Assembly (NCBI GenBank): GCA_030167865.1
Contig: JALAGF010001455.1
Coordinates: 1 to 64,000, forward strand
Direction: 5' to 3'
Length of the DNA stretch: 64,000 nt
Source of the DNA: Craspedostauros australis
Taxonomy: Eukaryota
The notes beneath the pieces were generated by a model. The model was not told the origin of the DNA. It was given only the letters and a program-made list of their open reading frames with translations, and ran no database searches. A program made the position numbers and the translations under genes. Below are positions 40,401 through 63,574 of this stretch, one piece after another. The first letter of the stretch is position 1. Every line of letters begins with the position of its first letter.

Positions 40401-40875
40401 CGACAAGGGTGCCAGAGCAAAGGCCGTCGTCGAAGGCTACCTGCAACGCGCATCCACCGAGAAGTACAAGACGCTGGCGTTTGGTGGCGTGATGGGGATT
40501 TCCGCTGCAAACGTCGAGCCCAACGGACTGCTCGGAATGGCGCTCGCCTTTCGTGCTGCCGCAGGCGAACTCAACATGACCGACGATGGTGGCGAACAGC
40601 AACGGCAGCTGCGACCGTGGCTTACCATCGACGTCGACAGCAAGAAGACCGAAGGCGAACGCATCGAGGCATTGCAGAAACAGGTTGAATTGCTGAATAT
40701 CGCAATCGCCAGGACGAAAGCAAACACAGCGCGAAGGATTCAAATTGGGGACGACCTCGACAAGAGGAAATTCCATTTTGATGATAGAATAACGCGCAAT
40801 GACAACGCCGCCCGAGAGAATCCATTGAAGAAGAAAAAGAAGTCGCTTTCGGCATCAGAGAAGGCTTCTGCGTGA
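37431..40875 (+). CDS. Chromatin reader with Lys/Ala-rich tract, bromodomain and PWWP-like domain, 2 exons: 37431-38459, 38701-40875
   Basis: EFSRPVALLHPE|LMDSYSKIVKNPIDL..DMWRIFSNCVQFH is bromodomain-like. AVWARESSKKPLWPALV..FLVEFLGTHEFIWV is PWWP-like. Basic coiled-coil C-terminus. Intron 38460-38700 is GTGAG..CAG. Confidence 0.82.
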
Positions 40876-41006
40876 GGCACTTGGGTCGACAGAGTGAGTA
40901 GTTTTGGATGGCGGGCACAGTATTGCTGGCCTACCGTACTCTACCACGTCATAAATAGAGCACCATCATGGCGTCATCATCCTTGTTGCTATTCACATGT
41001 GCACTA

Positions 41007-42674: not shown

Positions 42675-43244
42675 CGTCGATCGTTGATGTGATGTGATGT
42701 GGGATGCAATGCTCCGTTGGGCTCTGGGATGTTGTGAGATTGCATTGCCTGGATTGAGTTGTGAAGGGTCAGCACCTCCCAACCTGCTACCAAATGCAAG
42801 ATACGACCTGCGAGAACATCAACGTCGTCGCGGGCTCCCCAAGAACGCAGTTCGCGCACGAGGAATCGCAAAGGTTGCGGTCTTGGTTGACCGGACTGAC
42901 AGATACGTCGAAACACGAATTCGAAAGTGTTTCAATATTGATACTCTCAACGGACATGTGGGTTCGTGAATGGTTTGTGAGCGGCGAGAGTGGAGCGAAA
43001 ACGAACAAGACGACTGAACCCCACATCAAACGAATCACCGTGGCTGATCGTGGCCAGACATGTTGGACGGTGTTTCAGCACATCCGACCCACCATCACGC
43101 GGCATTGCCACATTGGACGTACTACTATGGCCATTATCGCACATTTGATCACAGAGTAGCAACATCGATAGAGCAGAAAGAAGAACGACGCCAATCCATT
43201 GCATGCAACTGGATTGCTGCAGGTCGCATACTAGTTGAAGCAAG

Positions 43245-44474: not shown

Positions 44475-44558
44475 TACAGCACAGCGCTTTGCTGCTGCAC
44501 TCCATTGCGTTTCGCTGTGCTGCTCTTTGCTGGAGCGTATTGCAGTATGCGATGCATC

Positions 44559-45557
44559 TTACTTGGTGTTCCACGCCGCGTCATCTTGCAACATCTTGGC
44601 CAACGCCGATTTCAAATCATCCAGCGTCCCATCGTTGTCAATCACGCCCGTCACCACACCGTTCCGCACTTCGTCTTCCAAATTCCCAATCCCCCTCCTC
44701 GACTCTTGCGCGGCAATGCGCTTCAAGGCTTCCTCCTGCGACAATCCGCGCGTGTCTTGCAACCGCTGCAAGGCCGTGTCCTGCGATGTGCGGATCACCC
44801 AGACACCATCCACCACATCCTCCCAGTCGGCATCCAACAGCACGGCCGCTTCCAAAATGACGATGCCCCGTTGCTTGGCTTGCAGTTCTTGAATTTGCGA
44901 TTGGATTTTGAGCTTGATTTGTGGCCAGACCAGTCGTTCCAATTTCTGTGAATCGTGCGGTTAGTTGAGTTTGTGTGGCATCCATAAATGCACTCACGAC
45001 AAGTTATGCGTGCCGACACGTACCTTCATTTGATCGGGATCCGAAAAGACGATGGCACCCAACTTCGGACGATTGACTTCCTGCGGATCATTTTGCAGCA
45101 CGTCCTGGCCAAATTCTTCTCCGATCAATCGTACTGTCTCGCTGCCCGGGCTGTAGACGGAATGTCCGATGGAATCGGCGTCTGTATTGTGGAAGAGTGT
45201 GAGAGGTTGTTGTCGTCATTGAGTAAATTGCTGCACGACGAGAACATCGGCGTTTGTCGACGTACCTAAATGAGCCAGACAATTGAATTCCGACACGAGC
45301 AGTTTGCATGCCGTGCTCTTGCCCGAACCAATGCCCCCGCAGACTCCCAACACCCTGAAGGGTTTGGCGTTGGTACCCCTGGATGACGCTGACATGGTGT
45401 CCCGCAATGCCGTCGTCGATAATGAATGTTGCAGCGGCAATGTGGAAGTTGTTCGATGGATTGCGAAAGATGCGGAAGATGCTGGGAAGGCAAGGAGGCA
45501 GAAGAACGGAACGATGGTCTTGCGGCAGCGAGCGTACGCCATCGATGGTCGGAGCAT
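44559..45557 (-). CDS. Dephospho-CoA kinase, 3 exons: 45557 (or 45395)-45266, 45181-45024, 44945-44559
   Basis: VLGVCGGIGSGKST P-loop, |DADSIGHSVY..FG..VNRPKLGAIVFSDP..|KLERLVWP, ILEAAVLLDA, RL..RGLS.EEA..RI.AQ and VIDNDG. Introns 45182-45265 and 44946-45023 are GT..AG and in phase. Confidence 0.9.
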
Positions 45558-46231
45558 GCTTTCGTTCGTCGAGCGCGTCGTTTGCTTTCTCTGGAGGGAT
45601 TGAACACGTTTGAGGGAGAGGAAAGTGATGGCCCATTACGACTATTGGTAGAGTGGGAGCACAGGAGGTTCAAACAGGTGATGGATGTCCGATGGATTGA
45701 TCGATTCAGCAATCATAACCACCGCATCGTTGAAGTGATGTTGATGTCGGAGTGATCGTGACGTGATGTGACGTCAATCACGATTTGGCGGGAGTGGATT
45801 GACACCAAGAAACCTCCACAACGCAAAAAAGATTGCCACACAACACACCTCCCATCCAATCCACAGATGCCATCAGAAGGCTTCCGCAAAGGCCGCCGAA
45901 GTTCTCTTGTGTGGATGCTGTTGATGGATCTGCGGCTGACAGCGTCGTCGAGGTTTCTTCGGTCGGAAGGACCCTGCTCCGCAGACGTCAATCCACTCCC
46001 ATTGCGCTGACTCCTCTTGCAGCTGACTACTAGTACACGACCACCACATGCCACCACTCCACCAACAGTGGAAAGGAAAGATCGTGACACAAGTGGCCGC
46101 TGGTGCAATCGGATAGGCGAGAAGTGGCAACCGGAGAAGAATCAGGGATCAGAGGCAGGAGCAATAGAAGCAACGACGGGATCGGAAGCAGAAGAAGAAC
46201 AAATCAGCGTCGTTATTATTGATCGATCATC

Positions 46232-49200
46232 ATGCCGGGAAGGATACGGTGGATTTCGCGACAGCACCAATGCGTGGGGGTCTTACTCGTTGCGCTCTGC
46301 TTCGGTCGGTACGACTACCATTGCAATGCTCTATCAACGGCTTCGATCAATTACATACCGACAATGTCAGCCACAACATTGCCAACGACGAGATCGGCAT
46401 CATCGGCCAGCAAACGAGGTTGGAGCAGCAAACCCAGAATCCGACAACGGTTGTCCAAGACGTATCGCGATGCAACGCCGACGGCATTGCGCATGGTGCT
46501 CACGACGCCGGAATCCATCATCGAAAAGGCATCGACGCAGAATCTCTTGGACGATCTCATCGATGAAAGCGTGCGGACGAGCGCAAGGAGGCCCATCATC
46601 ATGCAGTTCGATCCATCCAGTGGTTGGGTGAGTCTCCCATTTCAGCTTCTTTTTGGGTGCATACAAGTACCTTTGCTCGTTCATGAAGCCATGCTTTCAT
46701 TCATCTGTTCATTCCAGCACTATTGCATGATGCGTGCGCAATACTGCCTCCTGCAATGCCATTCTTCTTCTCACCCTTCGATCCCTCGTGTGATAATCAT
46801 ATCCCAATTGGATTTGGCTGGACAAGCACTTTCCCATTCCATCCGCGGTACGCCACTCCATCACACCGTGTCGCAACATATGACAGATCTGGCGACGATG
46901 GAAGGGAACGGTATTTTCCGAGACCTGGACCACATGCATCCGGAACATGGTGTACGCGCTGATTGTCCTGTGCATGTACAGATTGGTTCCAAACCCCGAT
47001 CAATTCCTCTCGGGCCTTGGCACTTTGTGGGGACAGCTGCTCTCTGTCACCACCTTCACCTTGACCTTCTTCGTCAACCAATCCTACGCGCTGTGGCGCA
47101 AATGCACGGAACTCAGCCGACGGTTGCAGGGACGCTTGCACGACATCGGTCTCAACTGCGCCACGCACGCCGCACGCAAGACGCCCACGAGCCCCAACGA
47201 ACCGACGGGATACACGGCGGCGAGCCGGCAGATCCTAGAGCTCATGGGACGCTACATCCGTCTCTTCAACTTGCTGACCTACGCCTCCTTCACGCGATCG
47301 CACCGCCCCATCCTCACGCCGCGGGGTATGCGACGTCTCGTGGAACGTGGACTCATGACGCCGCAAGAACGCGAGACGCTCGTGCAAGCTGCCATTCCCG
47401 GCACGCAGCGGCACAGCGCCATCCTCATGTGGATGATGCGCCTCTTCATCGAGGCCCGCGCCTCGGGGCATATCGGCGGCGGCAGCGGATTCGAACAGCA
47501 GACGCTGGAAAAATTCCACGTCATTCGTGCGCAGTACGGTGCCATCGGGGACGAATTGACCGGCCGCATGCCCTTGGCGTACACGCATATCGTGCAGGTG
47601 TTGGTGGATCTCATCCTCTGGATGTATCCAATCATGGCTACGCATACTGGCATGTCACCCTATCTCGTCGTGATCGGAACCGGCCTTCTCACCATCTCGT
47701 ACCAGGGATTGTTCGATCTGGCGAAGCAATTCCTGGATCCATACGACAATGAGACTTACGGAAAGGGCGAGGATCCGCTCTCTGTCGACACGCTCATCGC
47801 AGAATCTAACGCCGGATCCATACGATGGATGAACGCCTTCGAGCAGATACCGTACTCGTCACAGAGAGTGAAGGATGGCGAGCTCTACGAGTACTTGCTG
47901 CCGCAGCGCGGTTACTCGGTCGAGGAATTGAACCAGATAGAGGAAGACCGCAAGAAGAAGGAACTCGAGCTAGAGCAGCAGAAACAGCGTGAAGAAGAGC
48001 TGCGTCAACAGCAAGAGCTGGAAGAACAGGAAAAGGCCGCCAAAGAACAAGCGGAGGCAGACGCATTGATGATGGATGATGCTGACGACAATATTGATGG
48101 CGACCATGATCCCAATGCAATTTTGGAAGAACCAGAGGTCGCAATGCTCACCACGAGTACCAACGACACGGCGATCGCCGCCGAAGGAAAGCTGGTCAAT
48201 ACCACGGCGGCCGCCACGGTAAAGACTGTGTCACAGGTCGACGCGAATGGCACGAAGGTTGTTACGACGCAAAATGATACCGCCAGTGCCACCGAGGAGG
48301 GTGCGTTGGTGAATGATGCGAATGCCACTGCAGCCATACCCGAAGACACAGCAGAGTCTTCCGCGACGAGCGATGAAAGGCCTGTTCATAAAGTCACAAC
48401 GGTTGCAGGTGGCATCCCTGTAACGTTGGATCCTCCAACGGCGAATGAAGACGTGGAGCTGAGCAACAGGACTGAAACTGTCGTTGAGGATCAAAGAGCA
48501 GCCGAAGAAGCGAACGTAACGACTACTGAAGCCGAACAGACACAGAAACAACGGAAGAAAAAGAAAAAGCTCAGCAAGAAGGACGCTGAAACAGTCAAGG
48601 AGTCTCAGCAACAACAAGAGCAACAGCGGAAGCAACAACAACAACAACAACAACAACAACAAGTCACTGCGAGGCCTGTGATAACGTCAGTGTCGTCTAT
48701 TGAAGAGGATAATGATGAAGATCTGTTCATGCGATTCGAGCCTGAAATGGATGAACGCACTGAGAAGGAGGTGCAAGAAATGGCAGCAGCCGCAGTTGCA
48801 ATAGCGGAAGCCGCCACTGCCGCAGCAAAGGCAGGCAAGACGCAATCCCCGACAGAGGCCGGCGGTACACCAACCGATAACAGAAAACTGCTGAGCCGTT
48901 CCAGGGAACCGAACATCGCCGTTGAAGAACCGATGTTCGAGGAAGATCTGCCGGACATCTTCGACACAAGCCCGTACGATGGCTTGCCATGGTACGATGA
49001 GGTGGGCCCTGACGGCAAAGAGGTACGGCTGAGCGAGGTTTTGGCGAATGAGGAATGGGAGGAGGAAAAGCGCACGGAGTCCATCGCCATGACGTATGAT
49101 GAATTCAACAAGCAGATGGCAGAGCTCGAAGAAGAGGCGCGCAAGGAATTGATGGAAACCGCAGAGATATTGAATGCCGCGCCAGGCCAAGAGGATTCCC

Positions 49201-50456
49201 CGGAGGTGGTCGTGCGCAAGACGGTGGAGGCAGCACCGGCGGCATACGATCAAACGAGGTTGGACGGTATATCTCAGCTGTGGGGTCTCCCGCCAGAAAG
49301 TCTGGATGACTACCGTGAGCTGGAACAGCCGGAACCGATCGAGGAGGTTTCGTACTCCAACACGATGCAGCTTTGGGGGCTTCCAGGAGAAACCGATGTG
49401 CAACAGGACGATGGCGAAATCGTCGGCACCGACTTCAAAGGGATCTCGGAATTGTGGAGCAATGAACGGCCATCAATGGCTTTGGAACGGAACGGTCCGT
49501 CGAATGGCGGGAGTATGCCTACATCAACAGCGACCTTGACGGGAGGTGGGGAGACTTTTGGTGGATCCTTCGATTCTCTGCCATGGTTCGATGAAGTTGG
49601 AGCCGATGGCAACGAGTATAGATTGAGCCAAATGCTTGCCGATGAAGTTTGGGAGGAAGAAGTCGAAGAACACGAACCAATCACGTACGAAGAGTACCAG
49701 GAGCAGGTTTCCGAGATCATGTCGAAGGCTGAAGAGGAAATGTTGGAGACGCAGGCAATTCTGGATGCGGCTCCCGGTACCGACCCCAAGGGATGGGACG
49801 TCGAAGAGGAGAAACATGAAGCGAACGTCGCCAATCACACGGAAGTGGCGGGAACAGAGGAGGGAGGCGGTGTTGGCGCTGTTGACGGTAGCAGTGAGGA
49901 AGCAGAAATGCTTGAAGACGCCTCTCTCGATGCATTGGAGATGGACCTGCAGAGCATCCCGATTGAAGAGGAAGGGGAGGAGTCCGTAGATCAAGACGGC
50001 GAAGCGCCTTCGGGTGCCAAGAGCGGCGAGGAACAGGACGACATCAGTCTTGGCTATGGCGATGGCGATAGCAATTCTACGGATGATAAAGAGGTTTACG
50101 AGGACGTGTTCAAACAAATGAATGATGTGGATTCGGAACAAGATGATGTCGCTGCTACGAACGGAGAAGCCGCGAACGGCTCGGGAGATTCGGAGAACGC
50201 GAACAGCCATTTTGCTCACGTTTCTGAGAACGACGACAACAGCGACGCCGATACAGACACGCTCATGGACGCAACGACGAACGGCGATGTGACACATGCA
50301 GGAGGTGATGACAAAGAAAGCTCGTCGAGCGAAGCTGCTGGTGCAGACGAAACGGATACGCCATCCAACTCCGGCAAGGCGGGGGACAGCACCGATACTG
50401 ACAGCGACAACGACAGCAGCGGCGGTGGTGACAAAAAGAGCTCAAGGGATGATTGA
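46232..50456 (+). CDS. Bestrophin-family anion channel with probable signal/plastid targeting peptide and about 830-aa acidic tail, 2 exons: 46232-46627, 46887-50456
   Basis: FDPSSGW|IWRRWKGTVF, TTFTLTFFVNQSYALWR, MPLAYTHIVQVLVD and YQGLFDLAKQFLDPYD. Hydrophobic N-terminal signal followed by an S/T/R-rich transit-like segment. Intron 46628-46886 is GTGAGT..CAG. Confidence 0.85.
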
Positions 50457-50601
50457 AATGAATGAAATCATGGGAGTACCTGCAAAGAAATAATAGAAAA
50501 TCCTGGCGATGCATTGAAAAAAGTTGACATAACTCCTGACCTACGGGTGCGATGGGGAGGAGGTGTATGATATTGGTGTGCGCAGTGTGCCTGCGGGCAC
50601 G

Positions 50602-51978
50602 CTATGATGATGATGGCTTTGTGTGCCACAGATACAGCGCACGGTCGTAGAAGGAGCAGCTTGCAGCAAATTCGACGCTCTTCGCCTCCGCTTTGTTCGA
50701 TGGCAGGTGATACAACCAATCGGCACCGTACGCCATGGATTCGTGCTTGGTAAATTTGCTTTGAATGTCGATGGTTACATCACCGTGCGCGGCGGCCATC
50801 TCATCGTCGACTAACATACCATCCATTCGTACCGTGCGACATCCACCGTGCATGGCACCCACCAGCAGTCTATCGTTGTCGATTGGATGCCATTTGAGTC
50901 GCCATATCCCTCCACCCAGCGATGGATGGGAGCACAGTGGTTTGGAAAAGTTCCTCGCGTCGTAAATGGCCACGGACTCGTCGTAGCTGCCAGCCGCAAC
51001 GATGTGATCCATGCGGGGATGCGGCGACAGCACCGTCACGCCAGCTGTGAAGTCTGTCAGGGTGTGGGCGGGCCGAGGCGTGCCTCCGCCTGAGGAGATG
51101 GTGCGCAGATCCCAGACTTTCAATTTGCCTTCGTCGCCGCCGGACAGGAGCATATTGGAATACGGGTCGGGACCGACGAAGGAAACGGACCAAACCTCTG
51201 CTGGGTGCTGGGCAAAGAGCGTGTGGGCGTGCCAAGACTGCTGCAACTCCAACGATTGTGTCGCCGCGTCGTATTGGTGGATCGCAACATGGCCGTGGCT
51301 GTAGGATGAAGCGATACGGGGAGATGACGACGACGACAACGACGACGACAACGACGACGACGCGGGTTGTTGTTGATCCCATCCAACGGCCAGGCACAAC
51401 CCATGTTGGCCGCTGGATGATTCGATCGGTTGGCTCTTGGTGATGAACTTTGCTTCGAATGGAAACGTGTCTGCTTCTGTTTGAGTGTTGGAAGATGAAG
51501 ATGTTGATGACGACCGGATGGAATGCAAGCACACTTCGCCAGACGCATGTGCCGTCGCGTACCACCAATCACTATCTGCAACCACCGTGGCGGATGATGA
51601 CGACGATGCTGGCGTGTACCATTTACCATCGAGGATCCCCGAGGTTGGCTCGGGCCCATCATCCTTGCCCATGATGGACAATGGCTTCCCAAAGTCCGTT
51701 GTGTGGACGTTGTCGGGTGGGACTTTGACCGCAAACAGATCCAACGTTCCCAACCGGGTCTCCCCATCTTCCTGCAGTTCGTAGCAGGCCATCATGACTG
51801 GCCACACATGTCTATCGCTGGTTGTGCCATCGTCATTGGCGTCCGCGATGGTGACGGTAAAGACCGGAACGGCCTCCTGGATGGACTCCACACTGCACGG
51901 ATTCAGCGACGTCTTGACCAAGTCAACATGCGGCAGTTCGGGGACAGAATCTGATGCCTCTCCTTCTATTGAATCCAT
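50602..51978 (-). CDS. DPH7: WD40 protein, diphthine methylesterase (DPH7/WDR85/RRT2)
   Basis: YEL..GILDGKW, LSGGDEGKLKVWDLR, GSYDE, LGGGIWRLKWHP, MHGG, HESMAYGADW and ASCSFYD. Confidence 0.88.
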   Translation of the reverse strand: MDSIEGEASDSVPELPHVDLVKTSLNPCSVESIQEAVPVFTVTIADANDDGTTSDRHVWPVMMACYELQEDGETRLGTLDLFAVKVPPDNVHTTDFGKPLSIMGKDDGPEPTSGILDGKWYTPASSSSSATVVADSDWWYATAHASGEVCLHSIRSSSTSSSSNTQTEADTFPFEAKFITKSQPIESSSGQHGLCLAVGWDQQQPASSSLSSSLSSSSSPRIASSYSHGHVAIHQYDAATQSLELQQSWHAHTLFAQHPAEVWSVSFVGPDPYSNMLLSGGDEGKLKVWDLRTISSGGGTPRPAHTLTDFTAGVTVLSPHPRMDHIVAAGSYDESVAIYDARNFSKPLCSHPSLGGGIWRLKWHPIDNDRLLVGAMHGGCRTVRMDGMLVDDEMAAAHGDVTIDIQSKFTKHESMAYGADWLYHLPSNKAEAKSVEFAASCSFYDRALYLWHTKPSSS

Positions 51979-52295
51979 CGTGCGGCGTTCTATTCCGATG
52001 GTACGTATTCTATAATCTTATATGTAATATAACATGTGGCGCTTCTATGATGTTGTTGGGTGATGATCGTAGAATACCATACCAGGACGAGCAACGCATG
52101 ATGTAACCTCCATCCACATCACAGAAATTGACATCGCGCGTTTTGTGTGGTTGTGGCGCCAAAAATCGCCGAAACAAAGATCTGATTTGAGTCGTCCGAG
52201 TCGGACATTATCAATGATTGGGATGCTGGGTGGCAACTGCGACGATTGTTCTACCTCGGTTATTCTGCCATGCTCTACTCTATTCTTCTCTACTG

Positions 52296-53354
52296 TCATG
52301 AGAAAGCGTGATTGCCGCGATTGGATCCGCGGCGCCGCAAGGTCCTCCGTTCCTTGGGACTCAGTTCATCCCACCGCTTCTTGAGGGCCTTAATGCGATC
52401 CAAGGTGCCGGGATGCGTCGATTCCCAATGCGTCGCACCATCGCTGCCGCTGGGCTGCGAATCCCACAGCTTCTGCAAAAGCGTGGCCATCGCCTCTGGG
52501 TTGTATCGTCCGCTTCCCAAGAGCAGATTCCAGCTGGTGTCATCCGCTTCGTATTCGTCCTTGCGAGAAAAGGCCTGCTGGCCCAAGAAATCGGCCGACG
52601 ACACCACGGTCTCTCGAATCTTGTTGATCATGGCGTTTTGGTCGCCGCGTCTGGCGTTGTTACCATCGCCGTTTGGGAACTTGTGCACGATGTAGTCGAG
52701 CAAGAGCTTGATGACCTTGCGCTGCAGGATGCGCGCCTGGGAATGGCGGTTCAGGACGTGGCCCATCTCGTGGCCCAGCAGGGCCGCAACTTCGTCATCC
52801 GAAAGTCCCAGCGTGTCCATCAATCCGCTGGATACGCGGATAATGCCGCCGGGCAAGGCGAACGCGTTGATCATCTCCGCATCATCGAGGATGCTAAAAT
52901 CCCAACCGTACTTGGTGCTGTCGTCGAGATGCGCCGATGTGACCAGCTGGTCGCCGATGGACTTGACGCGAGAGGCGGCCCTGTGATAGTGGTTGGTGCG
53001 CATGCCCGATTGTTGCCAAGCCTGGATGCCCAAACTGACATCCTCCTCGATCGGAATCTCCGCCAGCATTATGTTGACGATGGCATCCGAGACTGGCGTC
53101 AAGTAGAAGACGGAAAGGGAGATGAGGGACATGAGGATGACTGTGATCTGCTGACGAGAAAGTGTGAAGCCGTCGGTCGCGGTCGCATTGAAGTTGGCGC
53201 CACCTAAATCCGGCTGGTACGGGTTTCCACCGCCGCCGTTGCCTCCGTAGACTCTGCCATTGGCTTGGTGCGGCTGCTGCCGCCGTCTTGCACCGAAATC
53301 CTGCCGCTGCGGCCGATCCCGCGGTTCGTAGTGGGGATTACGTATGCTGTGCAT
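52296..53354 (-). CDS. Peptidase M48 family metalloprotease (OMA1-like)
   Basis: One TM segment, then INAFALPGG, LLGHEMGH (HExxH), FSRKDEYEAD and STHP..RI. Confidence 0.88.
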   Translation of the reverse strand: MHSIRNPHYEPRDRPQRQDFGARRRQQPHQANGRVYGGNGGGGNPYQPDLGGANFNATATDGFTLSRQQITVILMSLISLSVFYLTPVSDAIVNIMLAEIPIEEDVSLGIQAWQQSGMRTNHYHRAASRVKSIGDQLVTSAHLDDSTKYGWDFSILDDAEMINAFALPGGIIRVSSGLMDTLGLSDDEVAALLGHEMGHVLNRHSQARILQRKVIKLLLDYIVHKFPNGDGNNARRGDQNAMINKIRETVVSSADFLGQQAFSRKDEYEADDTSWNLLLGSGRYNPEAMATLLQKLWDSQPSGSDGATHWESTHPGTLDRIKALKKRWDELSPKERRTLRRRGSNRGNHAFS

Positions 53355-54131
53355 GGTCGTCCTGGCGCTCGTGCAGTGGAGTTGCGACGTGGAGTTTTAC
53401 TGCAGAGTGGGGTTGAATAGTAGGGTGGAGTAGAGTAGAGCAGAATGGGGAAACGGAAGGCTCACAGATCTTGATTCGATTGGCTGTCGTCGATGTTTGC
53501 ATCAATGCAAAAGGTACGTGATTTGCACCATCACAGCACTTCCTTCTTCCGCTTGTGAGCCTTGGGCTCGAGCTTGAGGTTTCGTATGGTAGAGTACAAG
53601 TATGTGCCAATAGTCGCACAGGAACAGAGGAGGCAGGCCATTGATGATGCTCCACCCATCACTCCTCAGATGGATGGATGTTGGTTGGCGGTTCGATTGG
53701 CGACGCCAAGAATCCCATTTTGTGTCGATTCCAGTCGTGACATTCTCTTCGTGTGTGTTTGAGATCGTTGTCACAAAGAATTCGAATGGATCGATTGTAT
53801 CCGTTGAGTTGACCCGTAGTCTGTCCTGCGTCGGTATTGTGCATGAAGAAACCGAATTCTGGCATTTGTTGCTGTTTCGCCTTGACGCCTCTCTTCTCTT
53901 TGTGTCTCGCCTTGTGGCCACCATCACGGATGGAGGAGCTGGAGCTGCGATGTGGCACCAGTTCTTCGCTCGCAGCTTGTGTTGTTCCACGGTTCTGCTC
54001 TCAACCACAAAGACACTGAACGTCCGCTCGAGAGAGACACAAGCGGAGCAGAGTAGAGTATAGCAGAGTAGAGTAAAGCAGAGCAGAATAGACTCCTGCT
54101 GTTATACACATTTGATTCGATACCGTAAGCA

Positions 54132-56630
54132 ATGTTGGCGCGATGGTTGGACCGTGATGGCATCGGACAGATGCTGGCACCGGACGAGGTGGTGGCCAAG
54201 GAACCCGTTGGGGATGACAAGAACAACTGGTTCTGGCAGATCGTGGCGCCAGATCCGAAGTTCGATCCCATCAAGGCACCGCCGGAAGAGGCCTTCCTGG
54301 TTGCCAAGATCAATGCTTTGCGCAACAGCACGGTTGCGTGTCAGCATTGCGGCAAGCAGACCAGCATCGCAAGTGCCTTTGGGGGTGGCGCGGTTGTTCC
54401 GCCTCTCAATCCGCAGCAGGCAGATGCTGCGTCTACTGCTGCTGCAGTTCCTGACAGTCCCGTAGTTTCGGACACCCCTGCATCGACCATTCCACCACCA
54501 GCACAAGCCCGCAGTTCCACGGAGCCGGTCCTGCCAGTCGCGGCAGTTCCAGAGACGCCACAGCCGTCCGAAATGCAGCACAAGGCAATGATGCTGCAAA
54601 CGCCATCGCCCGGCCACCCAATCACGGCCGCTTCTGGAGCCGTGGATCCTGCTTACAGCGGCAGGCCGTACAAATCGGATTCCGCGATCCAACTGGAGCA
54701 GCTGGTCCTATCCGCCGCCATGGAAACGGCCAGGAGCATGCACTCGCCGCCCAACCAAGCGGAGCAGCGCAACAAGATCTTCCGCATCTGCGGCAACCAC
54801 AAACCGCTCAATGACAAGCTCTCGGCAAGACTGCGCAAGTTGTTGACCAACGATCCCACCTTGCTCAATGCCCGCGCGACGCATCTTGGAATGCTGGTGC
54901 CGGATGGATACACGTGCTTCATGGCGGCTGCGCATGCGGGCAACGTGGAGGCTGCCAACATCGTGCTCGATGTCGCCTCCGCGCAAAACCAGGATGGCGA
55001 TGCCAGCATCACGGCCGATGTGGAGATGGATCGCGATCTGCAGGGACGCACGGCTCTTCACATCGCAGCCGAGATGGGGCATGTGGAGATCGTGGAGCTG
55101 CTGCAAGCCAGGCACGATGGTGATGCCATCGACGTTGGCACCGCCATTGGCGCAACGGACGAAACTTCCAAGCAGGATGATCCAGCAACAGCGAAGCAGC
55201 AACGACAGAAGAACAAGCAGATGCAGGCGCCTCTCGTGGACTTGCTGGGACGAACACCGTTCGGCCGCGTCATGACGTCACCCAATCCGAAGGCGCGCAA
55301 GAAGCAGAGAGAGCTGGAGCAGATCCTCTTCTCCCCCGTCGACTCCTCCATCCGCGGCGTCCCGAATCCGCTCTCGGAACGTGTCGGCGCCGACATGCTC
55401 TACAGGCAGCTCAAGGTCTTGTACGGCATTGCGGACATGCCCGGGATGAGGGTCACCATGGAGGATGCCATCAGCACGGCCTCCTGGAAGGACCCGACAA
55501 CGCAGGAGTACTTCACCTTGCTTGGTGTGTGCGATGGCCACGGCGATCACGGCCAGGTGTCCAAATTCATCGCCGACACAATTCCAAACAAGCTGCGAGA
55601 TATCCTCAAGGTGGAGCAGGAGGTCGTCATGGACAACAGCGGCGGCGATGCTCTACCAGCCGCACTGGATTGGCAAGCGATTTGGACGAAGACGTGCATG
55701 GAGACGGACATGCTGCTGCGTCAAGCGGCGCTGAAGGGCGGATCAACCGGCGTCTTCGCATTAATCACGGAAAAGTCCATCATCGTTGCCAACGTTGGCG
55801 ACAGCCGCAGCATCCTGGTGCAGTCCTCGGCAGGCATCGAACGCGCGCCAGAATCCATCGGATTGGAATCGGCATTGGAGCAGTTGCAATTGGGAGCAGC
55901 AACTGTCGCTGGGGATACAGCTGCCGAAACAAATTATCCCGAGGCCATCGATCAAGACGAGCCGCATCTGGTGAATGAGGAAGGATCAGACGAACAGCAA
56001 TCAGCTGATGACAAGCCAGCAGCGGCATCGAACAACGATGACGGTGCCGACAGCGCTGATGGCATCAACGTCATCCCGATGTCATTCGACCACAAACCAG
56101 ACAAGGAGGCAGAACGCATCGAGAATGCCGGACTCAAGGTCCAAGAGAGCAGGTTCATCGATGAGAATGAAAAGGAGCTGGTGTTCCACAAGATCATTCG
56201 ATCCAACGGAGACCAGCTTGCCGTTTCCCGCGCCTTCGGCGACTTCGAATACAAGACGAACAAGACGTTGGGACCCGAAGAACAGGCCGTCATCGCCGTG
56301 CCGGACGTGAAGATCCACCCACGCAACGTCCAGGTGGATCTGTACTTGGTGCTGGCATGCGACGGTATCTGGGACGTCATGTCCAACGTGGAAGTCGGCA
56401 AGTACGTGTCGCAGGAAATGGATGCGATCAAGACGCAGCCGCGACGCATCGATTCCACCGTATTGCCGCAGGTCGGCGATGCCTTGCTGTCCACCTGCTT
56501 GGACAAGGGTTCGCGGGACAACATGTCGGTCGTGCTGGTGGCGCTCAATCAAGGTGCGGAGCCGTTGGCACCGATCTCGGAGAGCAGCGGCGGCGATGAT
56601 GATGCCGTCAAGACTCTTAGCTTCGCTTGA
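54132..56630 (+). CDS. Ankyrin-repeat / PP2C (PPM) protein phosphatase fusion
   Basis: Ankyrin repeats GYTCFMAAAHAGNVE, GRTALHIAAEMGHVEIVELL and GRTPF. PP2C motifs MPGMRVTMEDA, GVCDGHG, GSTG, ANVGDSR, DHKP, LAVSRAFGD, LACDGIWDV and GSRDNMS. Confidence 0.9.
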   Translation: MLARWLDRDGIGQMLAPDEVVAKEPVGDDKNNWFWQIVAPDPKFDPIKAPPEEAFLVAKINALRNSTVACQHCGKQTSIASAFGGGAVVPPLNPQQADAASTAAAVPDSPVVSDTPASTIPPPAQARSSTEPVLPVAAVPETPQPSEMQHKAMMLQTPSPGHPITAASGAVDPAYSGRPYKSDSAIQLEQLVLSAAMETARSMHSPPNQAEQRNKIFRICGNHKPLNDKLSARLRKLLTNDPTLLNARATHLGMLVPDGYTCFMAAAHAGNVEAANIVLDVASAQNQDGDASITADVEMDRDLQGRTALHIAAEMGHVEIVELLQARHDGDAIDVGTAIGATDETSKQDDPATAKQQRQKNKQMQAPLVDLLGRTPFGRVMTSPNPKARKKQRELEQILFSPVDSSIRGVPNPLSERVGADMLYRQLKVLYGIADMPGMRVTMEDAISTASWKDPTTQEYFTLLGVCDGHGDHGQVSKFIADTIPNKLRDILKVEQEVVMDNSGGDALPAALDWQAIWTKTCMETDMLLRQAALKGGSTGVFALITEKSIIVANVGDSRSILVQSSAGIERAPESIGLESALEQLQLGAATVAGDTAAETNYPEAIDQDEPHLVNEEGSDEQQSADDKPAAASNNDDGADSADGINVIPMSFDHKPDKEAERIENAGLKVQESRFIDENEKELVFHKIIRSNGDQLAVSRAFGDFEYKTNKTLGPEEQAVIAVPDVKIHPRNVQVDLYLVLACDGIWDVMSNVEVGKYVSQEMDAIKTQPRRIDSTVLPQVGDALLSTCLDKGSRDNMSVVLVALNQGAEPLAPISESSGGDDDAVKTLSFA

Positions 56631-57389
56631 GGTTGACGGTGGCGGTCAAACTGATGCCACATTCTTGGTGGCATTTCACGATTACCAAGCACGCGAGTAC
56701 AACAAGGGACGAGGTCGCCGTCAGGCAGAGCGGGAGCATTCGACTGCTGGAACAATACAGACGAGACAAGGCAGTGAAGCTCCTGTACTCTTCTCGAATA
56801 GATGCGCAACAACATGGAAACGAGACTGCCGTACACACTCTAAAATAAACGAGAAGTGCCATAGAGTAGACAAACAACACATCAGGTCGTTGTCATTGCT
56901 CGAGTGCTGCTACTGTTACGATGACGGTTGTGTCGGCTGTCACTGCATCCGGATCCACACAATAACAATAACAACGACGGTGACGACAACGACATTCGCT
57001 GTGTTTCAGAAAAGGCATTTCATTATTTTGCTTATTTGCTTCGTGTTGCTGTTGCGCGTAATACGTGATGAATGGATCTGTTCGCGGCGCTTGCATGGTC
57101 TGCCAACAATCCACGATACCGGTGGGCTTGCTTTCAAGAGTAAGCAAGACAAACGATCGTCCTTGATTGACTGTTGCATTGCCGACAATTACCAACGATG
57201 TCATTCTCTGCTTCTTTCTCTGTCTCTCTCTCTCTTTGTTTTCATGTAGCGGTATTCTGCCAGCTTGACTTTTTCACTTGCTCCTTGCTGGCTGCTGTTG
57301 TCTTTTACTTGTAACATTGATTGCTGAACCTGTTGCATTGCATTGCGCTGCATGCAACTAGCCATCATTCTCTAACGCTCGTAGTATGT

Positions 57390-59561
57390 TCAATTGATCT
57401 TCTCCTCACCTTCCGTGAACTCGGCAAACTTGCTGAGGTCTGGGAGGGATGGTCGTCGGAATCCATCTGGCATGGTGATGGTGCCCTTGCGGCAGCACAC
57501 CACCATGTGCGGGATGTTGACGCCCAAGATCTTGCGCTGGAATCGTGCGATGGTCTTGGTGTACTCGTCCTTGGCGAAGACCTTGTTGAGGATGACGTCG
57601 CGGGTCTTGGCCTCAATGCGGACACCGTCCTGCTTGTACCAGGTGCGGATGAGGAAATCCTTGAAGGTGTTGCCAGCCTCGCTGTAGGTGTCGAAATCGG
57701 CGACGAGCACACGTCCTTGTTCGGAAAGCAAGACCTTTCCGGAGACGAGGGCCTCCTCCCATCGTGGGATCATGGAGAGAGAGTAGCTGAACGTGATGGT
57801 GTCGAATCCGCGGTTCAAGTCGGCGCCGGTGATCTTGGCGAGCTGCTCCTTGACGTCGTGGGCGTTGATGTCGAGGCAGACCCATTTGATCCTGGCGCAC
57901 TGCTCCTCTGTGAAGGACTTCTTGGCGCTGTCTTCTCCGATCTGAAGCAATTCTGGGCAAATGTCGAGGACGATGATGGATTCGAACTTGTCGAGCTGGG
58001 AGCGGAGGTAGTGCACGTTGCGGCCTGTTCCGCCACCGACATCGAGCCATGTCATGCCGTCGCGGACTGGACCGAATGCGGACATCATGTCCGGGCGTCC
58101 GACGAGCATGTTCTCACGAACGGCGTCGTACCCCTTGGCCTGGGCGGCGTAGAAGGAGGACATCTTGTCACCGTGCGCGCTGACACGCCCGGCAGTGATG
58201 GGGTGGAGGATCATCTTGGTGGTGGTGATGAATTTTCTCCAGGTGGAGGCCTTCTGACATGGCGATGGCTCGATGTCAACGAACGGGAAGTCGTCACGTG
58301 GCATGTAGGAGAGGAATGTGCCTGGGTACATCTTGACACGGTCCTTGGGGTACCACTTGGGGCTCAGGTCGTCAATGTCGAGGTTGTTGAAGAATGGCTT
58401 GTCCTCCATGTGGGTGAAGGCAGAGCGCCACAAGATCTTGGCGCCTGGAACGGTTGCGCGCTGCAGGGCGATCCACTCGTCATGGACCATGGAATTTGGC
58501 ATCCAGTCCATGTGATCGAGCAGGACGAGCTTGGTGAAGCTGTGCGGCTTGACGCGTTCCATGGTGTCCTGCACGGTGGCGTGGTGCCACTCGAAGCACG
58601 AGGCGTTGGCGCGAAGGCTGTCGAAGTGAGCCTTCTTGAGGGTTCGTGGGCAGCAGTCCTGGTCCTTGTAACCCTTCTCGTAGTAGAATCGGTAGAAGTA
58701 GTTGGTGCGACCGAATTCCGGATCGAGGAAGATCTCCTTGAGGATTCCCTCGTAGAATTCGACGGTGTAGAACTCCGGCCCGACCTGGTTTGGTGGCACT
58801 CCGGCGAATGGCGCGAGGATGCCTGGGAAGAGGCGGCGGAACCATCTGGCGGAATTCTCAATGACGTGGTAGTTTTCCTGCATGTACTTGTGAGAGAATC
58901 CGGTCTCAGCCCATGCCTTGACGTCGAAGCCGACGGAGTACATGAGGAAGGGGATGAGGTACTTGGCGGCGAATCCGCACGAACCGGAATTGGCAAAGCC
59001 CTTGCGGAAGACGCGCTCAATGCGGCCGTCCCACCACTTGCGTCCGCCGGCGGACATGGTGTGTCGCATGCGCTTCCACACGCGCAGCACGATGTCGACA
59101 TCGGAGCTGCCCCAAATTCCCCACCATTCCTCGTAGGTGAGCTTGGGGTCGCGCAGCATGCGGATCTTGAGCTCGAAGAGCCAGAGCTGGTGCTGGTTCA
59201 TGTCGCAGACGACGATCTTTTCTGGCCCCTCGATGGCGTAATCCAGGACGATGTCACCGGCGGAGCAGATTCGGAAAATCACGTCGTCGCTCTTGAGTTT
59301 GAGAATTTGGTGATCAACAGCAGGATCCTCCCAGCAGATGTTGTAGATGTAGGTGCGATTGACGATTGTGTCGATCATGTTGATGGACTTCTTCACGAGT
59401 GCCAGCGCCACCACGGAACCCGCAACACCAGCGGCTGCCATGCCGACGGTTGGGTTGATGTCGGCCTGAGCCTTGGTGACGGCAGTCGTCACGACAGTCG
59501 TCACAGCAGTCGTGACCGCATCGACCGCCTGGTCGAACATTTTCTGGGCCTTGACGCTCAT
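57390..59561 (-). CDS. BTA1: Betaine lipid (DGTS) synthase, BtaA(DUF3419)-BtaB(methyltransferase) fusion
   Basis: BtaA-like N-part: YIYNICWEDPAVD..ICSAGD..DMNQHQLWLFELK, NYFY, LDHMDW, ILWRSA, DRVKMY. BtaB-like C-part: SFYAAQAKGYDAVRE.ML.GR, WLDVGGGTGRN, VLDIC, ITFSYSLSMIP, VADF. Confidence 0.88.
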   Translation of the reverse strand: MSVKAQKMFDQAVDAVTTAVTTVVTTAVTKAQADINPTVGMAAAGVAGSVVALALVKKSINMIDTIVNRTYIYNICWEDPAVDHQILKLKSDDVIFRICSAGDIVLDYAIEGPEKIVVCDMNQHQLWLFELKIRMLRDPKLTYEEWWGIWGSSDVDIVLRVWKRMRHTMSAGGRKWWDGRIERVFRKGFANSGSCGFAAKYLIPFLMYSVGFDVKAWAETGFSHKYMQENYHVIENSARWFRRLFPGILAPFAGVPPNQVGPEFYTVEFYEGILKEIFLDPEFGRTNYFYRFYYEKGYKDQDCCPRTLKKAHFDSLRANASCFEWHHATVQDTMERVKPHSFTKLVLLDHMDWMPNSMVHDEWIALQRATVPGAKILWRSAFTHMEDKPFFNNLDIDDLSPKWYPKDRVKMYPGTFLSYMPRDDFPFVDIEPSPCQKASTWRKFITTTKMILHPITAGRVSAHGDKMSSFYAAQAKGYDAVRENMLVGRPDMMSAFGPVRDGMTWLDVGGGTGRNVHYLRSQLDKFESIIVLDICPELLQIGEDSAKKSFTEEQCARIKWVCLDINAHDVKEQLAKITGADLNRGFDTITFSYSLSMIPRWEEALVSGKVLLSEQGRVLVADFDTYSEAGNTFKDFLIRTWYKQDGVRIEAKTRDVILNKVFAKDEYTKTIARFQRKILGVNIPHMVVCCRKGTITMPDGFRRPSLPDLSKFAEFTEGEEKIN

Positions 59562-61005
59562 CTTTTCGTCGTTGCCGTTTGGTTTGAGTTGGAGTTATCT
59601 CCTCCTGCTCTCTGTCTCTGCGCATGTGCATGGCAGAGCGATAAAATGAGAATGCATCAGCACATTTCGCACATGATGACGAGGTTGAGGAATTGGCATT
59701 CCGATGGTCGCATCGGATCGCATCAGATCGAATGATTTGAATGCGGATTCAACCGATGTCGCAAATGCGATGGTGAATGCATGATGATGAAAAATGAACG
59801 ACGGCAACGGCCAGAGTAGGAAGAGAGGAAGATCAAATGGACCAGGATGACCAATGGCGGATTTTTGCAATGCGGAATCAAAGGCGACGGAGTGGGTTCA
59901 AACGCACGAGAAGAGATTTGTGAGAAAGGGGATGATGTAGTCGCATGAATAATGCACTCTGATATAGTGTTGAGGACTCCATGCAAAACGCACAGGGTTA
60001 TGGAGAGATAGGATTTGCAAGTGTGTTCCACATCGGTACGGATAGAGTGACGACGGCCAATGACGTGCAAAAATACGAAAATAAAGATCTTCTTCAATCT
60101 TTGTCTGAATTTGGCGACGACTATTGCTGCGCCATTCTCCCATTGTTCACCATCACACTCCCACAGCAGCAGCAGCGATCATTGAGCCAGAGTCAATGTC
60201 AACGCCAGTATCATCGCCAATGCACTGGCGAATGACCGTTTGGGGTGACTCGACATGACATGATCCCCCAATTGCCATGCGACCAACGCGTGACCTGCCA
60301 ATTCATGCAGGTTGATGCATTGATGAAGAGACGACGGATGACCCCTTGCCGTGAGAGTCCATTGCAGTGGCCAATTGCATCAACAGCAAAATCCATCGTC
60401 GGCGCGAGTTTCCGAAAACAAGATCCGAAGGGAATTCGCAGATCTCTGAAGATCGTCATCCGCAAAAGGGAACAGATTTCGCAGGTTTCACCATCCGCAC
60501 GATCACCAGTTGGATAACCACCAAGATGGTGACGCTCCATGGCAGGAGGCATAGAGCCAGGTATGGTATCGTATTGCCGACGACGCTGACGATGATGAGC
60601 ACTCACGTTTCCAAATCCAAGATTGTGAATGCACGTGCTTCAGAAGCATGGGTGTGGAACTGTGCTGTTTTTGTTGTTGTGGTTGTTTTCGGAGTGTGTT
60701 TGGTGGGTGGCTCGTTGGTTGGTTGGTTGGTTGGGTTGGTTGGTTGGCTGTTTCGTTGCTGGTCGGAAGCCGTCGCAGCCGCATACTTTTGGGCGCTCTT
60801 GTGTGTGTGGTGGCGGGAAATGCGTGACGTGCGAGGTCGCGAAGCGAGGTGCAAAGGATCTTGCGGAACTTTCGTTGTTTGCCTCTCGCCATCTATCGCG
60901 CATCGCTCATTCACGCTTCTACGCGTGTGGGTGCGTTGTTGTGTCGTTGTTGTTGAACTCAAATCGAGCTCGTCGTTTGTGTCCCACGAAATCGGACTCG
61001 GCAAA

Positions 61006-61095
61006 CGAATCTCTTTCATTACTATTCTTAATAGGTTTATGTGCTTTCATATTGAATCTTGGAAAAGCAAGAGATTCCCTCCAAATCCGAATCTT
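61006..61095. promoter_or_regulatory. Cluster of YGAATCTH phosphate-starvation-response (PSR-type Myb) motifs
   Basis: CGAATCTC 61006-61013, TGAATCTT 61053-61060 and CGAATCTT 61088-61095, plus a near-match GGAATCTC on the minus strand at 61071-61078. They lie in an AT-rich patch between two divergent lipid genes. Confidence 0.65.
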
Positions 61096-61798
61096 TGTGA
61101 TCGGTGAAGTCGTTTTCGTCATGTGGATCAAATTCAGTCACCAGCACATCGTCACACACAAAGGTTTATGATTGGCTGATTGCGAAGCAGGACGACTGTC
61201 CTTGGGTGCAAGTCATCATTGGAAAAGCAGTGAATTGCACCAATGACATCAACTGTTTTGAAAATTCAGAGTAGTCACATGAGTCACACGAGCAACCAAC
61301 AGCCGCCACGTCATGTTGAGCGCCAGCCATCACACATCAACACTCTTCTCCAATGCCAAAAGTAGTCAGACGCCACGAACGAGTCAAATGCCGAAGATCG
61401 ACAAACGCCGATCCAACGTCACGATGGTGATGGGGCAACCGACGTCCGGACCATCGAGAAGAAGGCAGGTGCAGAAACGGCGCCAACGCGAACCGAAGCC
61501 ACCTCTCCCCGCGCGTGTGTGTGCAAGAAGAACGCCGTGCTCGCAGCGACGATCCGGTCGGCCACACGTCCACATCGCAGCAATTCAGATCTTTGGTCAA
61601 ATCTCTTGCGCGGCAACCCATCAAAACTGACTTGTGCAGATCCATTCCGAACATAGCACAACAAAGTCCAATACTCTACTTTGCCTTCGTGCCACAATCA
61701 AGTCAACACCGATCCATCGACCCATCAATCGCCCCATTCGTCCCAACCACTGAGGCAACTGGAACAGAGCGCAGAGTGCACAGCACAAAACAGCAAAG

Positions 61799-63574
61799 AT
61801 GGCATCCAAGACAGGCGCCGGCAAGAAGGAGCTCGCCAACCTGTACAGCTTCGAGTCCATCTTCATCTCGAAGAAGGCGTACGAATATGTAGCATCCGAA
61901 TTCCATCCTTACCACAAGCATGAGCTCAACGTGCTCCTGCATGTCTTCACCACAGGATTCGGCCTTTGGGGTGCCTTCCAGCTGGCCGCCGAGCTCGATG
62001 CGGTCGCCGCCGTCTACGCTTACGCGGCCATCATTGCCCTCACGACTCCAGTCCCAACGGCATTGCTCCACACCGCCTTCGTCGCGGGATGCCTCCAGGT
62101 CCCCGTCTCGGCATTGGGACTGGCCTACGATCCCATCGTCACATGCGTCGGGGCCATCGCCGCTGGCTACGGTCTGCAGGACGTCGCCCACTACCTGTGC
62201 GATGAGAAGACCATGATGTCCTCGTACATCGGCACCAACCCAGCCATGCTCATCGTCCACACCCTCTGGCTCATGCCGCTGGTCATCGATTCCGTCCTCA
62301 TGCGTCACTTCTTCCTCCCGAAGATCGTCAACCGCAATCGCAACATTGTGTGCGACGTCGCCTCTCGCAAGGCCGTCGAGGATCTCCGCAACTTCATCAA
62401 CGAGAACGTGGAGGAGAAGCCGGAGACCACCCACCTGTGGCCGCATGACCACAAGGCCATCGACAAGGCCTCCACCGATTTGGAGAACGATGCCGGCGTC
62501 ATGGCGGGATTCCGCAAAATCTTCGCGCCGCAGCACTTCGACGTCAAGCCCGTCGTCGGCATGAACGAGATCTACGTCACCGCCGTGGGTGCCATCAAGG
62601 AGATCACCTCCGATGCGGTCTTCTACACACCGCACACCGACGGTCCCTACTGGTTCCTCCCAGGCGCATCTCTCTACCGCGTCCTGGTCGGCGTCACCCC
62701 CAACACCATGGTCCGCACCAATTTCAACCTGCAGCACGAGACCGAGAGTCAGATTCTGGACATGTACGGAGTGGTCGGATTCGATTACAACCGCGAGCTG
62801 CACTGGATCGACCACGTCCCAGGCGAGAAGAACAAGGAACGCCGATCGCTGCTCAAGCTGCATTACATCGTCTACCCCAAGGGATGGCACCGTTACGGCG
62901 CTCTCTGCGCCTATTTCAACACTTCCTACAACACGTGGGCCCGATCCAACTTTCTCCTCACCCTGCGCCCAAAGACCGCCTACGAAAACACAGTCGCTTG
63001 GTGGATCTGGATCACCACGTGGAGCAACTCCATGTTCGAGATGTACATCGGTTGGAGCAACGTCGTCTATCTGCTCGGATGCTTCGCCCTCGGACCAACT
63101 CCATTCCTGGTCCTCACATCCTTCCGTCACTACGCCGTCTACATCACCACCTTCGCCTACCGCAAGCCAGCCGTCGCGCACGGTTACCTCATGCGCGATG
63201 CCAAGTTCTTCAAGACCGTCGCCCTGATGCACCTGTCCCGTCGTCTGCTGCCACTCGTGGAGCTCCCATCCGACATTCCAGGCGTCCTCCTCGCCGCCAC
63301 AGGCTTCTCCATCACCATCCTTGCCACCGTCCGTCTGGGCATGGTCCGCACCTACTTCGGTTCGGAGCTCGACTTCGTCAAGCCAGAATGGATCAACGGA
63401 TTCCCGTACGGCACCATCCCACACCCCATGATCGTCGGCCAGCTCATCGCCTACAGCTCCATCCTCACGTGGTTCTGGGACAAGCTGACCACAGAGACCG
63501 TCGCTCTGATCGGTGCGCATATGTCGTGTTATGTCACCCACATGGTCCAGGAGATGCTCACCTCTAGCTACTAA
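61799..63574 (+). CDS. Uncharacterised multi-domain membrane enzyme: Mpo1/DUF962-like + HxD..H Fe(II)-dioxygenase-like + PEMT-like
   Basis: Intronless 591-aa ORF with strong codon bias. N-terminal FHPYHKHELNVLLH..GYGLQDVAHYLCDE; middle FYTPHTDGP..YRVLVG..FDYNRELHWI..RSLLKLHY; C-terminal RLGMVRTYFGSELD..GFPYGTIPHPMIVGQ. Confidence 0.85.
   Translation: MASKTGAGKKELANLYSFESIFISKKAYEYVASEFHPYHKHELNVLLHVFTTGFGLWGAFQLAAELDAVAAVYAYAAIIALTTPVPTALLHTAFVAGCLQVPVSALGLAYDPIVTCVGAIAAGYGLQDVAHYLCDEKTMMSSYIGTNPAMLIVHTLWLMPLVIDSVLMRHFFLPKIVNRNRNIVCDVASRKAVEDLRNFINENVEEKPETTHLWPHDHKAIDKASTDLENDAGVMAGFRKIFAPQHFDVKPVVGMNEIYVTAVGAIKEITSDAVFYTPHTDGPYWFLPGASLYRVLVGVTPNTMVRTNFNLQHETESQILDMYGVVGFDYNRELHWIDHVPGEKNKERRSLLKLHYIVYPKGWHRYGALCAYFNTSYNTWARSNFLLTLRPKTAYENTVAWWIWITTWSNSMFEMYIGWSNVVYLLGCFALGPTPFLVLTSFRHYAVYITTFAYRKPAVAHGYLMRDAKFFKTVALMHLSRRLLPLVELPSDIPGVLLAATGFSITILATVRLGMVRTYFGSELDFVKPEWINGFPYGTIPHPMIVGQLIAYSSILTWFWDKLTTETVALIGAHMSCYVTHMVQEMLTSSY

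Follow-up and report, generated by a model that had tools for sequence, protein, structure and literature searches.

At the downstream end of a 64,000-nucleotide stretch of the genome of Craspedostauros australis (positions 1 to 64,000 of contig JALAGF010001455.1, assembly GCA_030167865.1; the whole stretch is hereafter "the window") two genes are transcribed away from each other. The first, referred to here as gene X, occupies 61799..63574 on the forward strand, stop codon included, and encodes a 591-residue membrane protein of three domains in a single exon, as judged from the open reading frame (ORF) listing and its translation, from homologues and from an AlphaFold model. Its frame runs uninterrupted from ATG to stop, and an in-frame stop stands 17 codons 5' of the ATG. 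The second, on the reverse strand (57390..59561), encodes a 723-residue BTA1-type synthase of the betaine lipid diacylglyceryl-trimethylhomoserine (DGTS), in which Pfam recognises a BtaA-like DUF3419 domain (PF11899, 221.7 bits, aa 68-417) followed by a BtaB-like S-adenosylmethionine (SAM) methyltransferase domain (class-I methyltransferase families, aa 498-634, E 1e-10 to 1e-4). Published passages on the enzyme equate this pairing of DUF3419 and an AdoMet-MTase domain with BTA1. A 2.2-kb spacer, read directly from the sequence (59562..61798), separates the two divergent genes and presumably holds both promoters. [quoted passage not shown] DGTA is a major phosphorus-free membrane lipid in diatoms, brown algae, haptophytes and picoprasinophytes, and it is central to phosphorus saving by the marine phytoplankton. 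Labelling work led in 1992 to the proposal that it is made from DGTS, and the published view, as worded in the passages on this step, is a decarboxylation and recarboxylation of DGTS; the relevant passage of a 2023 paper describes enzyme and mechanism as "still unknown." Our literature search returned no paper in which DGTA formation is attributed to a particular gene, the 2025 betaine-lipid review in Progress in Lipid Research, which could name candidates, lying outside that search.

X has many relatives. An exhaustive search of representative proteins gave 592 of them at E<=1e-3 and 133 at E<=1e-30, many of the 592 being about 600 residues long and aligning over their full length at 30-37% identity. 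A word-indexed search found full-length homologues at 55-75% identity, under source names such as Nitzschia, Seminavis, Fistulifera, Mayamaea and Entomoneis, the closest being diatom-type proteins (73-75%). Sequence searches of the PDB, with the protein and with the family profile, gave nothing relevant, and among NCBIfam models none matches X. Forty-seven full-length homologues (30-70% identity) were aligned, and this alignment, called A1, underlies all conservation figures given here. Twenty-three columns are invariant: H39, E136, E257, S271, H279, D281, P283, P288, R294, D329, H335 and I337, then G418, H444, G502, G514, E523, P536, Y537, P543, M544, G547 and H574. At least 90% of the sequences also keep N44, H48, Q127, H131, H154, R349, K353, H355, H542, Q584 and E585. 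A prediction made originally from the sequence alone had singled out a set of motifs in X, and a regular-expression search of the translation finds every one of them exactly once and in the predicted place: YHKHELNVLLH at aa 38 (YHxxxxNxxLH), QDVAHYLCDE at aa 127 (QxxxHxxxxE), HTD at aa 279, H335, LGMVRTYFGSE at aa 513, GFPY at aa 534 and PHPMIVG at aa 541. Being conserved across the 47 aligned homologues, these motifs go beyond chance.

An AlphaFold2 model of X built on A1 (mean predicted local distance difference test, pLDDT, 92.7; predicted template-modelling score 0.88) consists of helices at aa 9-176, a strand-rich part at about 180-360 and helices again at 364-588. The original prediction had divided the chain into an Mpo1-like, a dioxygenase-like and a PEMT-like domain. 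This three-domain reading is right, all three assignments having been recovered by profile or structure comparison. Judged by curated sequence thresholds, X is nevertheless placed in none of the three families concerned (Mpo1-like, 2-oxoglutarate (2OG) oxygenase, PEMT). It is read here, from its sequence, as a putative iron oxygenase combining an Mpo1-type with a 2OG-type centre and anchored by a PEMT/ICMT-like membrane module, and we regard the family as new both in its architecture and in its hypothetical reaction.

The middle domain (aa 178-380; 62330..62938, forward strand) has the double-stranded beta-helix fold of the Fe(II)/2OG oxygenases, as indicated by VIA-align, Foldseek and the invariant columns. 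With VIA-align, the best match of the modelled domain is the viral collagen prolyl hydroxylase 5c5t (Z 11.0, root-mean-square deviation (rmsd) 3.6 A over 157 residues), followed at Z 10.9-10.4 by AviO1, AsqJ, ColD, P3H1, AndA, TlxIJ, EvdMO1 and PHD2; the top 13 matches of the structural comparison are all Fe(II)/2OG oxygenases. The top Foldseek matches are likewise all 2OG oxygenases, although weak (best E 1.5e-3). The iron-binding HxD...H triad that had been predicted, H279/D281/H335, is invariant in 47/47 homologues. Further along the chain R349, conserved at the 90% level noted above and located 14 residues past the distal histidine H335, is a candidate for the basic residue that would bind the C5 carboxylate of 2OG; K353 is also conserved, both being considered as sequence positions only. 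By contrast with this structural agreement, no Pfam 2OG-oxygenase family matches X at E<=1 or any of the 47 homologues at E<=0.01. Because fold and triad are recovered without a Pfam sequence match, the middle domain is read from the model as probably a new sequence family within the Fe(II)/2OG-oxygenase fold, its invariant triad intact. It thus shares with the oxygenases of the prolyl-hydroxylase, AsqJ, AndA and PhyH type a fold spanning the whole domain (Z 9-11), the HxD...H motif and an arginine at +14, but differs from them in lacking any Pfam 2OG or PDB sequence match and in sitting between two membrane domains. Use of 2OG by X is putative.

The N-terminal domain (aa 1-177; 61799..62329, forward strand) is a helical membrane domain of the Mpo1-like/DUF962 type, as judged by hhalign, Pfam PF06127, conservation and the helices of the model. 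Here, too, the resemblance lies below the usual threshold: X scores 10.1 bits against PF06127 (E=0.91; curated cut-off 24), and the family is found in 8/47 homologues at E<=0.01, one bacterial homologue exceeding the cut-off (24.2 vs 24 bits). The predicted kinship with Mpo1 was nonetheless borne out when A1 was compared by hhalign with 7 genuine PF06127/DUF962 proteins taken from Pirellulaceae genomes (probability 95%, E 4e-8, 111 columns, X aa 25-137). In this profile alignment H39/N44/H48 and Q127/H131 fall on the H/N/H and Q/H columns of DUF962; together with E136 and H154 these conserved residues make up a putative first metal site. Both X and the DUF962 proteins therefore carry H-x4-N-x3-H and Q-x3-H motifs in a homologous helical membrane domain. 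They differ in that this domain is one of three in the 591 residues of X, whereas the sampled DUF962 proteins are 100-174 residues long, and in that the spacing from the second histidine to the conserved glutamate is 5 residues in X, against 3 in DUF962. According to published passages on the family, yeast Mpo1 is an Fe2+-dependent 2-hydroxy fatty acid dioxygenase, an activity known for the yeast protein only, and the sole known chemistry of the family is the one-step, Fe2+/O2-dependent removal of C1 from a 2-hydroxy acid. The substrate of X would differ from this, being probably the head group of a betaine lipid rather than a 2-hydroxy fatty acid.

The C-terminal part is a helical membrane domain (aa 381-591; 62939..63571, forward strand) whose last ~100 residues are PEMT/ICMT-like according to Pfam PF04191, hhalign and a separate model of aa 380-591 (pLDDT 87.7). 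Its motifs are LGxxRTYFGxE, GFPYG, PHPMIVG and a QE at the C-terminus. X itself falls just short of the PF04191 cut-off (aa 495-570, 22.8 bits against 25), but PF04191 is found in 45/47 homologues at E<=0.01, several bacterial ones reaching 26-42 bits, and hhalign of A1 against 9 genuine PF04191 proteins gives a probability of 75% (E 2.5e-5). In these 9 members R, H, P and Y (RHPxY) are invariant, followed by E, Y, Y and P. In X the same stretch reads P541-H542-P543-M544-I545, so that the arginine has become Pro541 and the tyrosine Ile545, and the chain stops just after Q584-E585, leaving out the Tyr/Tyr/Pro tail of the family. Only Tyr537, His542, Pro543 and possibly Glu585 are retained. Because RHPxY is altered and the tail is absent, SAM binding by this domain is uncertain. 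The predicted likeness to the phospholipid methyltransferases PEMT and Opi3 holds as a domain assignment, SAM binding being no more than putative. In the structure comparison the cofactor-binding part of the sterol reductase 4quv comes best (Z 8.9 over 96 residues), a value that helical bundles reach by chance, ICMT 5vg9 (Z 7.4, rmsd 9.6 A) lies within the same chance range, and Foldseek finds no match to this domain below E 1.6. X is like the PEMT/ICMT/sterol-reductase superfamily in its PF04191 match and in having 4quv and 5vg9 among its structural matches, but unlike it in the missing arginine, tyrosine and C-terminal tail. As an observation apart, the third nearest cluster of a protein atlas by language-model features (cluster 3; score 0.83, to be taken as a lead only) holds 54 proteins named as PEMT-family, mostly from Nucleocytoviricota; when viral contigs were scanned once, using the homologue from Mantoniella, no relative turned up.

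It is the company kept by X, in eukaryotes and bacteria alike, that points to its pathway. Diatom-like metagenome contigs contain 21 X loci, 19 of them close relatives (56-74% identity), and 7 of these 19 extend at least 1 kb upstream of X. BTA1 stands head to head with X across a 1-3 kb spacer in 5/7 of these informative contigs (L056, L061, L062, L064, L066), whose X proteins share no more than 57-74% identity with that of the window. On a separate matter, the match to X is broken into 2-3 colinear pieces with short gaps in several diatom-like contigs (L064-L068), which suggests introns in those species, the window gene being a single exon.

In prokaryotes, each species being represented by a single genome, a scan that started from a bacterial-type relative yielded 23 loci. 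They belong to Planctomycetota (Rhodopirellula baltica, four Stieleria species, Rubripirellula, Rhodopirellula, Phycisphaera and other Pirellulaceae), to Myxococcota and to a few metagenome-assembled genomes. The separate bacterial DGTS genes btaA and/or btaB adjoin X in 18/23 loci, a count that includes the locus supplying the tblastn queries. Thirteen loci, from Rhodopirellula baltica, Stieleria and other Planctomycetota, have the order metallophosphoesterase-btaA-btaB-X on one strand with abutting genes, as in L021 (phosphoesterase 4907-5899, btaA 5899-7101, btaB 7101-7877, X 7887-9806). The phosphoesterase is LpxH-like, and we take it to resemble PlcP, the phospholipase that supplies diacylglycerol for DGTS in rhizobia. 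In L002 (Myxococcales) and L003 the layout is different and convergent, and the bta genes are only ~26% identical to the planctomycete ones, which makes these two loci independent instances of the pairing. Three of the 5 loci without bta neighbours come from genomes that carry DUF3419 elsewhere. Of 201 evenly sampled Pirellulaceae genomes, 151 were found to have DUF3419/btaA and 12 to have X, with 10 strong X matches, of which 8 lie within 3 kb of btaA; a phylum-wide sample of Planctomycetota had X in 1/301 genomes, namely the centre genome. That X is far rarer than btaA fits an optional step downstream of DGTS synthesis.

Finally, X and the synthase can share a chain. The 1231-residue protein P0216 (a cluster of n=2) contains X at aa 7-572, a linker of ~20 residues, DUF3419 at aa 594-949 and a methyltransferase at aa 1042-1200, its second half being colinear with the window BTA1 (aa 68-692, E 2e-35). 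X is therefore tied to BtaA/BtaB and BTA1 by neighbourhood, operon membership and one fusion, but has no sequence relationship with them and contains neither a DUF3419 nor a class-I methyltransferase domain. The neighbourhood, which recurs in two domains of life, the several independent arrangements and the fusion together argue that X works on the product of BTA1 or BtaAB, and on these grounds a role for it in the betaine-lipid pathway is likely. The original prediction had included the idea that X tailors lipids in several steps, with DGTS among the substrates to be assayed, and this is strongly reinforced by the gene context.

Which product would X make? The named eukaryotic carriers include diatoms, Chromera velia, Diacronema (Pavlova) lutheri, Pavlovales CCMP2436 and the prasinophytes Mantoniella and Pterosperma. 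Passages on the lipids of these organisms or their relatives give DGTA as Phaeodactylum's main extraplastidial lipid, report it in P. lutheri, include both DGTS and DGTA among the lipid classes of Chromera, and describe it as the exclusive betaine lipid of Ostreococcus although a BTA1 homologue is present there. Among the Mamiellophyceae, Mantoniella is the carrier of X and Ostreococcus the DGTA-containing relative. On the side of presence, the phyletic pattern thus fits, the named carriers including organisms in which DGTA is reported and others from groups with a DGTA-containing member.

On this basis it is proposed that X is the DGTS-to-DGTA enzyme, working by iron- and O2-dependent chemistry on the head group; from sequence and context, we regard this as the likeliest explanation, at about an even chance. 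X would be an integral-membrane, iron-dependent oxygenase acting on the head group of DGTS, itself made by the neighbouring BTA1, and would convert the trimethylhomoserine ether into the hydroxymethyl-trimethyl-beta-alanine ether. The membrane domains would bind DGTS within the bilayer, the 2OG-oxygenase centre would abstract a hydrogen from the C4 chain beside the trimethylammonium group, and the Mpo1-like centre would remove C1. The PEMT/ICMT-like domain might be a lipid- or cofactor-binding module; its cofactor could be SAM or, as the related sterol reductases would suggest, a nicotinamide, or it might use none. An oxidative rearrangement of the head group would suit the presence of two conserved metal sites. 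The invariant iron triad and the match to a one-carbon-removing dioxygenase family lend the scheme catalytic plausibility, and the shortening of 2-hydroxy acids by one carbon in the Mpo1 family fits the formation of DGTA by decarboxylation and recarboxylation of DGTS. In its fuller form, in which a single polypeptide with two iron centres would take the carboxyl off DGTS and place a carboxyl anew on the adjacent carbon, and in which Planctomycetota (R. baltica, Stieleria) and some Myxococcota would make DGTA under phosphate stress, the proposal is put forward tentatively, at somewhat short of an even chance. Several detailed mechanisms were tried on paper and set aside. A radical 1,2-carboxyl shift could not be made both chemically sound and consistent with C1 loss, and the same applied to an oxidative decarboxylation that gives a vinyl-ammonium and is then followed by carboxylation, to a Stevens-type methyl migration and to C-methylation followed by oxidation.

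Other fates of DGTS have to be weighed against this one, for the gene context shows X working with the DGTS pathway but not which product results. 2OG oxygenases typically hydroxylate or demethylate, so that X could instead hydroxylate the DGTS head group, remove N-methyl groups oxidatively or take a step towards another betaine lipid, diacylglyceryl-carboxyhydroxymethylcholine (DGCC). DGCC is reported in diatoms and Pavlovales, and nothing is known of its synthesis according to a passage of a 2023 paper. The lipid inventories speak the other way: only DGTS and DGTA are listed for Chromera, DGTA is exclusive in Ostreococcus, and relatives of both carry X. Moreover, in the passages on these lipids, DGTA is known to derive from DGTS while DGCC is not, and no hydroxylated or demethylated class of DGTS is met. 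Such alternative tailoring is accordingly judged rather unlikely, though it deserves to be kept in view. It is improbable that X degrades or recycles DGTS, for example through a hydroxylation at the ether carbon that detaches the head group and releases diacylglycerol, in the manner of TfdA-type 2OG oxygenases. The superfamily does include ether-cleaving members, and coupling to bta genes would also suit a homeostatic partner of DGTS synthesis. However, a degrader fused to its synthase, as in P0216, or placed last in a biosynthetic operon would create a futile cycle, and turnover of DGTS leaves the two additional conserved membrane domains unexplained.

Two further readings would take X out of the betaine-lipid pathway. 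The domain make-up alone might suggest an enzyme of fatty acyl or sphingoid chains, in which Mpo1-type alpha-oxidation is coupled to hydroxylation and head groups play no part: Mpo1, in the passages cited above, is a 2-hydroxy fatty acid dioxygenase, and phytanoyl-CoA 2-hydroxylase (2a1x) is among the structural matches (Z 9.9). Since this leaves the btaA/btaB linkage, the BTA1 fusion and the phyletic pattern unexplained, it is considered very improbable. The automatic UniRef and JGI names of homologues, for their part, would have X be a phosphatidyl-N-methylethanolamine or phospholipid N-methyltransferase making phosphatidylcholine. The Pfam PEMT match in 45/47 homologues is in favour of those names. 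Yet the PEMT-like part makes up only ~100/591 residues, its RHPxY arginine and tyrosine are replaced by proline and isoleucine and its C-terminal Tyr/Tyr/Pro is missing, the invariant iron triad is ignored by such a reading, the NCBIfam models do not match, and the genetic partners of X are DGTS genes, which replace phospholipid rather than make it. A plain methyltransferase is thus the least credible reading, with a probability close to negligible.

Several observations nevertheless weigh against X as the DGTS-to-DGTA enzyme. The conversion of DGTS into DGTA is a net isomerisation, an unusual and not obvious task for a 2OG oxygenase, whose substrate becomes oxidised, and the support presented here consists throughout of gene context and phyletic pattern. 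In 2/7 informative diatom-like contigs (L054, L055), no BTA1 is found within 4.3-4.8 kb upstream of X, and a homologue of X occurs in the chytrid Globomyces. The bacterial operons are mostly of one family and share ancestry, hence they are not independent observations. Two bacterial genomes, G004 (one of the strong Pirellulaceae matches, without btaA) and G005, carry X with no DUF3419 found anywhere in the genome, their completeness not being given, and X lies far from btaA in the Pirellulaceae genome G353, another of the strong matches. Only one fusion cluster was found, a targeted search of proteins of 677-2155 residues having given no second. As no report of DGTA in bacteria was found in the literature, the bacterial side of the proposal is a prediction and not a confirmation. 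The operon carrier Stieleria mannarensis, grown without phosphate stress, is described in a passage on its lipids as having phosphatidylcholine, phosphatidylethanolamine and unidentified lipids only, a description that speaks neither for nor against the proposal.

The proposal matters in several respects. A concrete candidate gene makes the DGTA question directly testable. If the proposal is true, the planctomycetes and myxobacteria would provide the first bacterial DGTA, and an algal origin could no longer be presumed for DGTA from anoxic or subsurface settings; should bacteria carry the pathway, the use of this lipid as an "algal" biomarker would need revision. X would also serve as a marker of betaine-lipid capacity in genomes and metagenomes, and would open the way to engineering DGTA into hosts that produce DGTS. 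Finally, the rearrangement of a head-group carbon skeleton by a fused Mpo1-like/2OG-oxygenase/PEMT-like enzyme would be without a described counterpart.

Some minor observations were made around the bacterial loci. In G353, X (L072:6082-7959, reverse strand) is convergent with a PstS-type phosphate-binding gene (L072:4425-5570, forward strand; PBP_like_2, 122 bits) and an ArsR-type regulator; its place beside the PstS-type gene hints at a phosphate-stress setting. The btaA/btaB matches at L014:6616-7866 and the phosphoesterase/btaB matches at L023:6568-7570 cover only parts of the query proteins, and may represent decayed or rearranged operons or else assembly problems. A distant paralogue of 462-490 residues exists in two Pirellulaceae genomes (L071:5897-7282, reverse strand, identical to G319:C13, and G343:C6:5349519-5350730). 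It has no Mpo1-like domain, and its order is reversed, a PEMT-like part (45.7 bits) at the N-terminus preceding the oxygenase-like part; it is located away from bta genes, with an ECF sigma factor and a Ser/Thr kinase as neighbours.

Within the window itself, the spacer between BTA1 and X contains a short simple repeat of GGTTGG type at 60690-60760. Upstream of the gene pair, the stretch 38473-57249 holds several long ORFs, for example at 46947-50456 and 54132-56630 on the forward strand and at 41007-42782 on the reverse strand.

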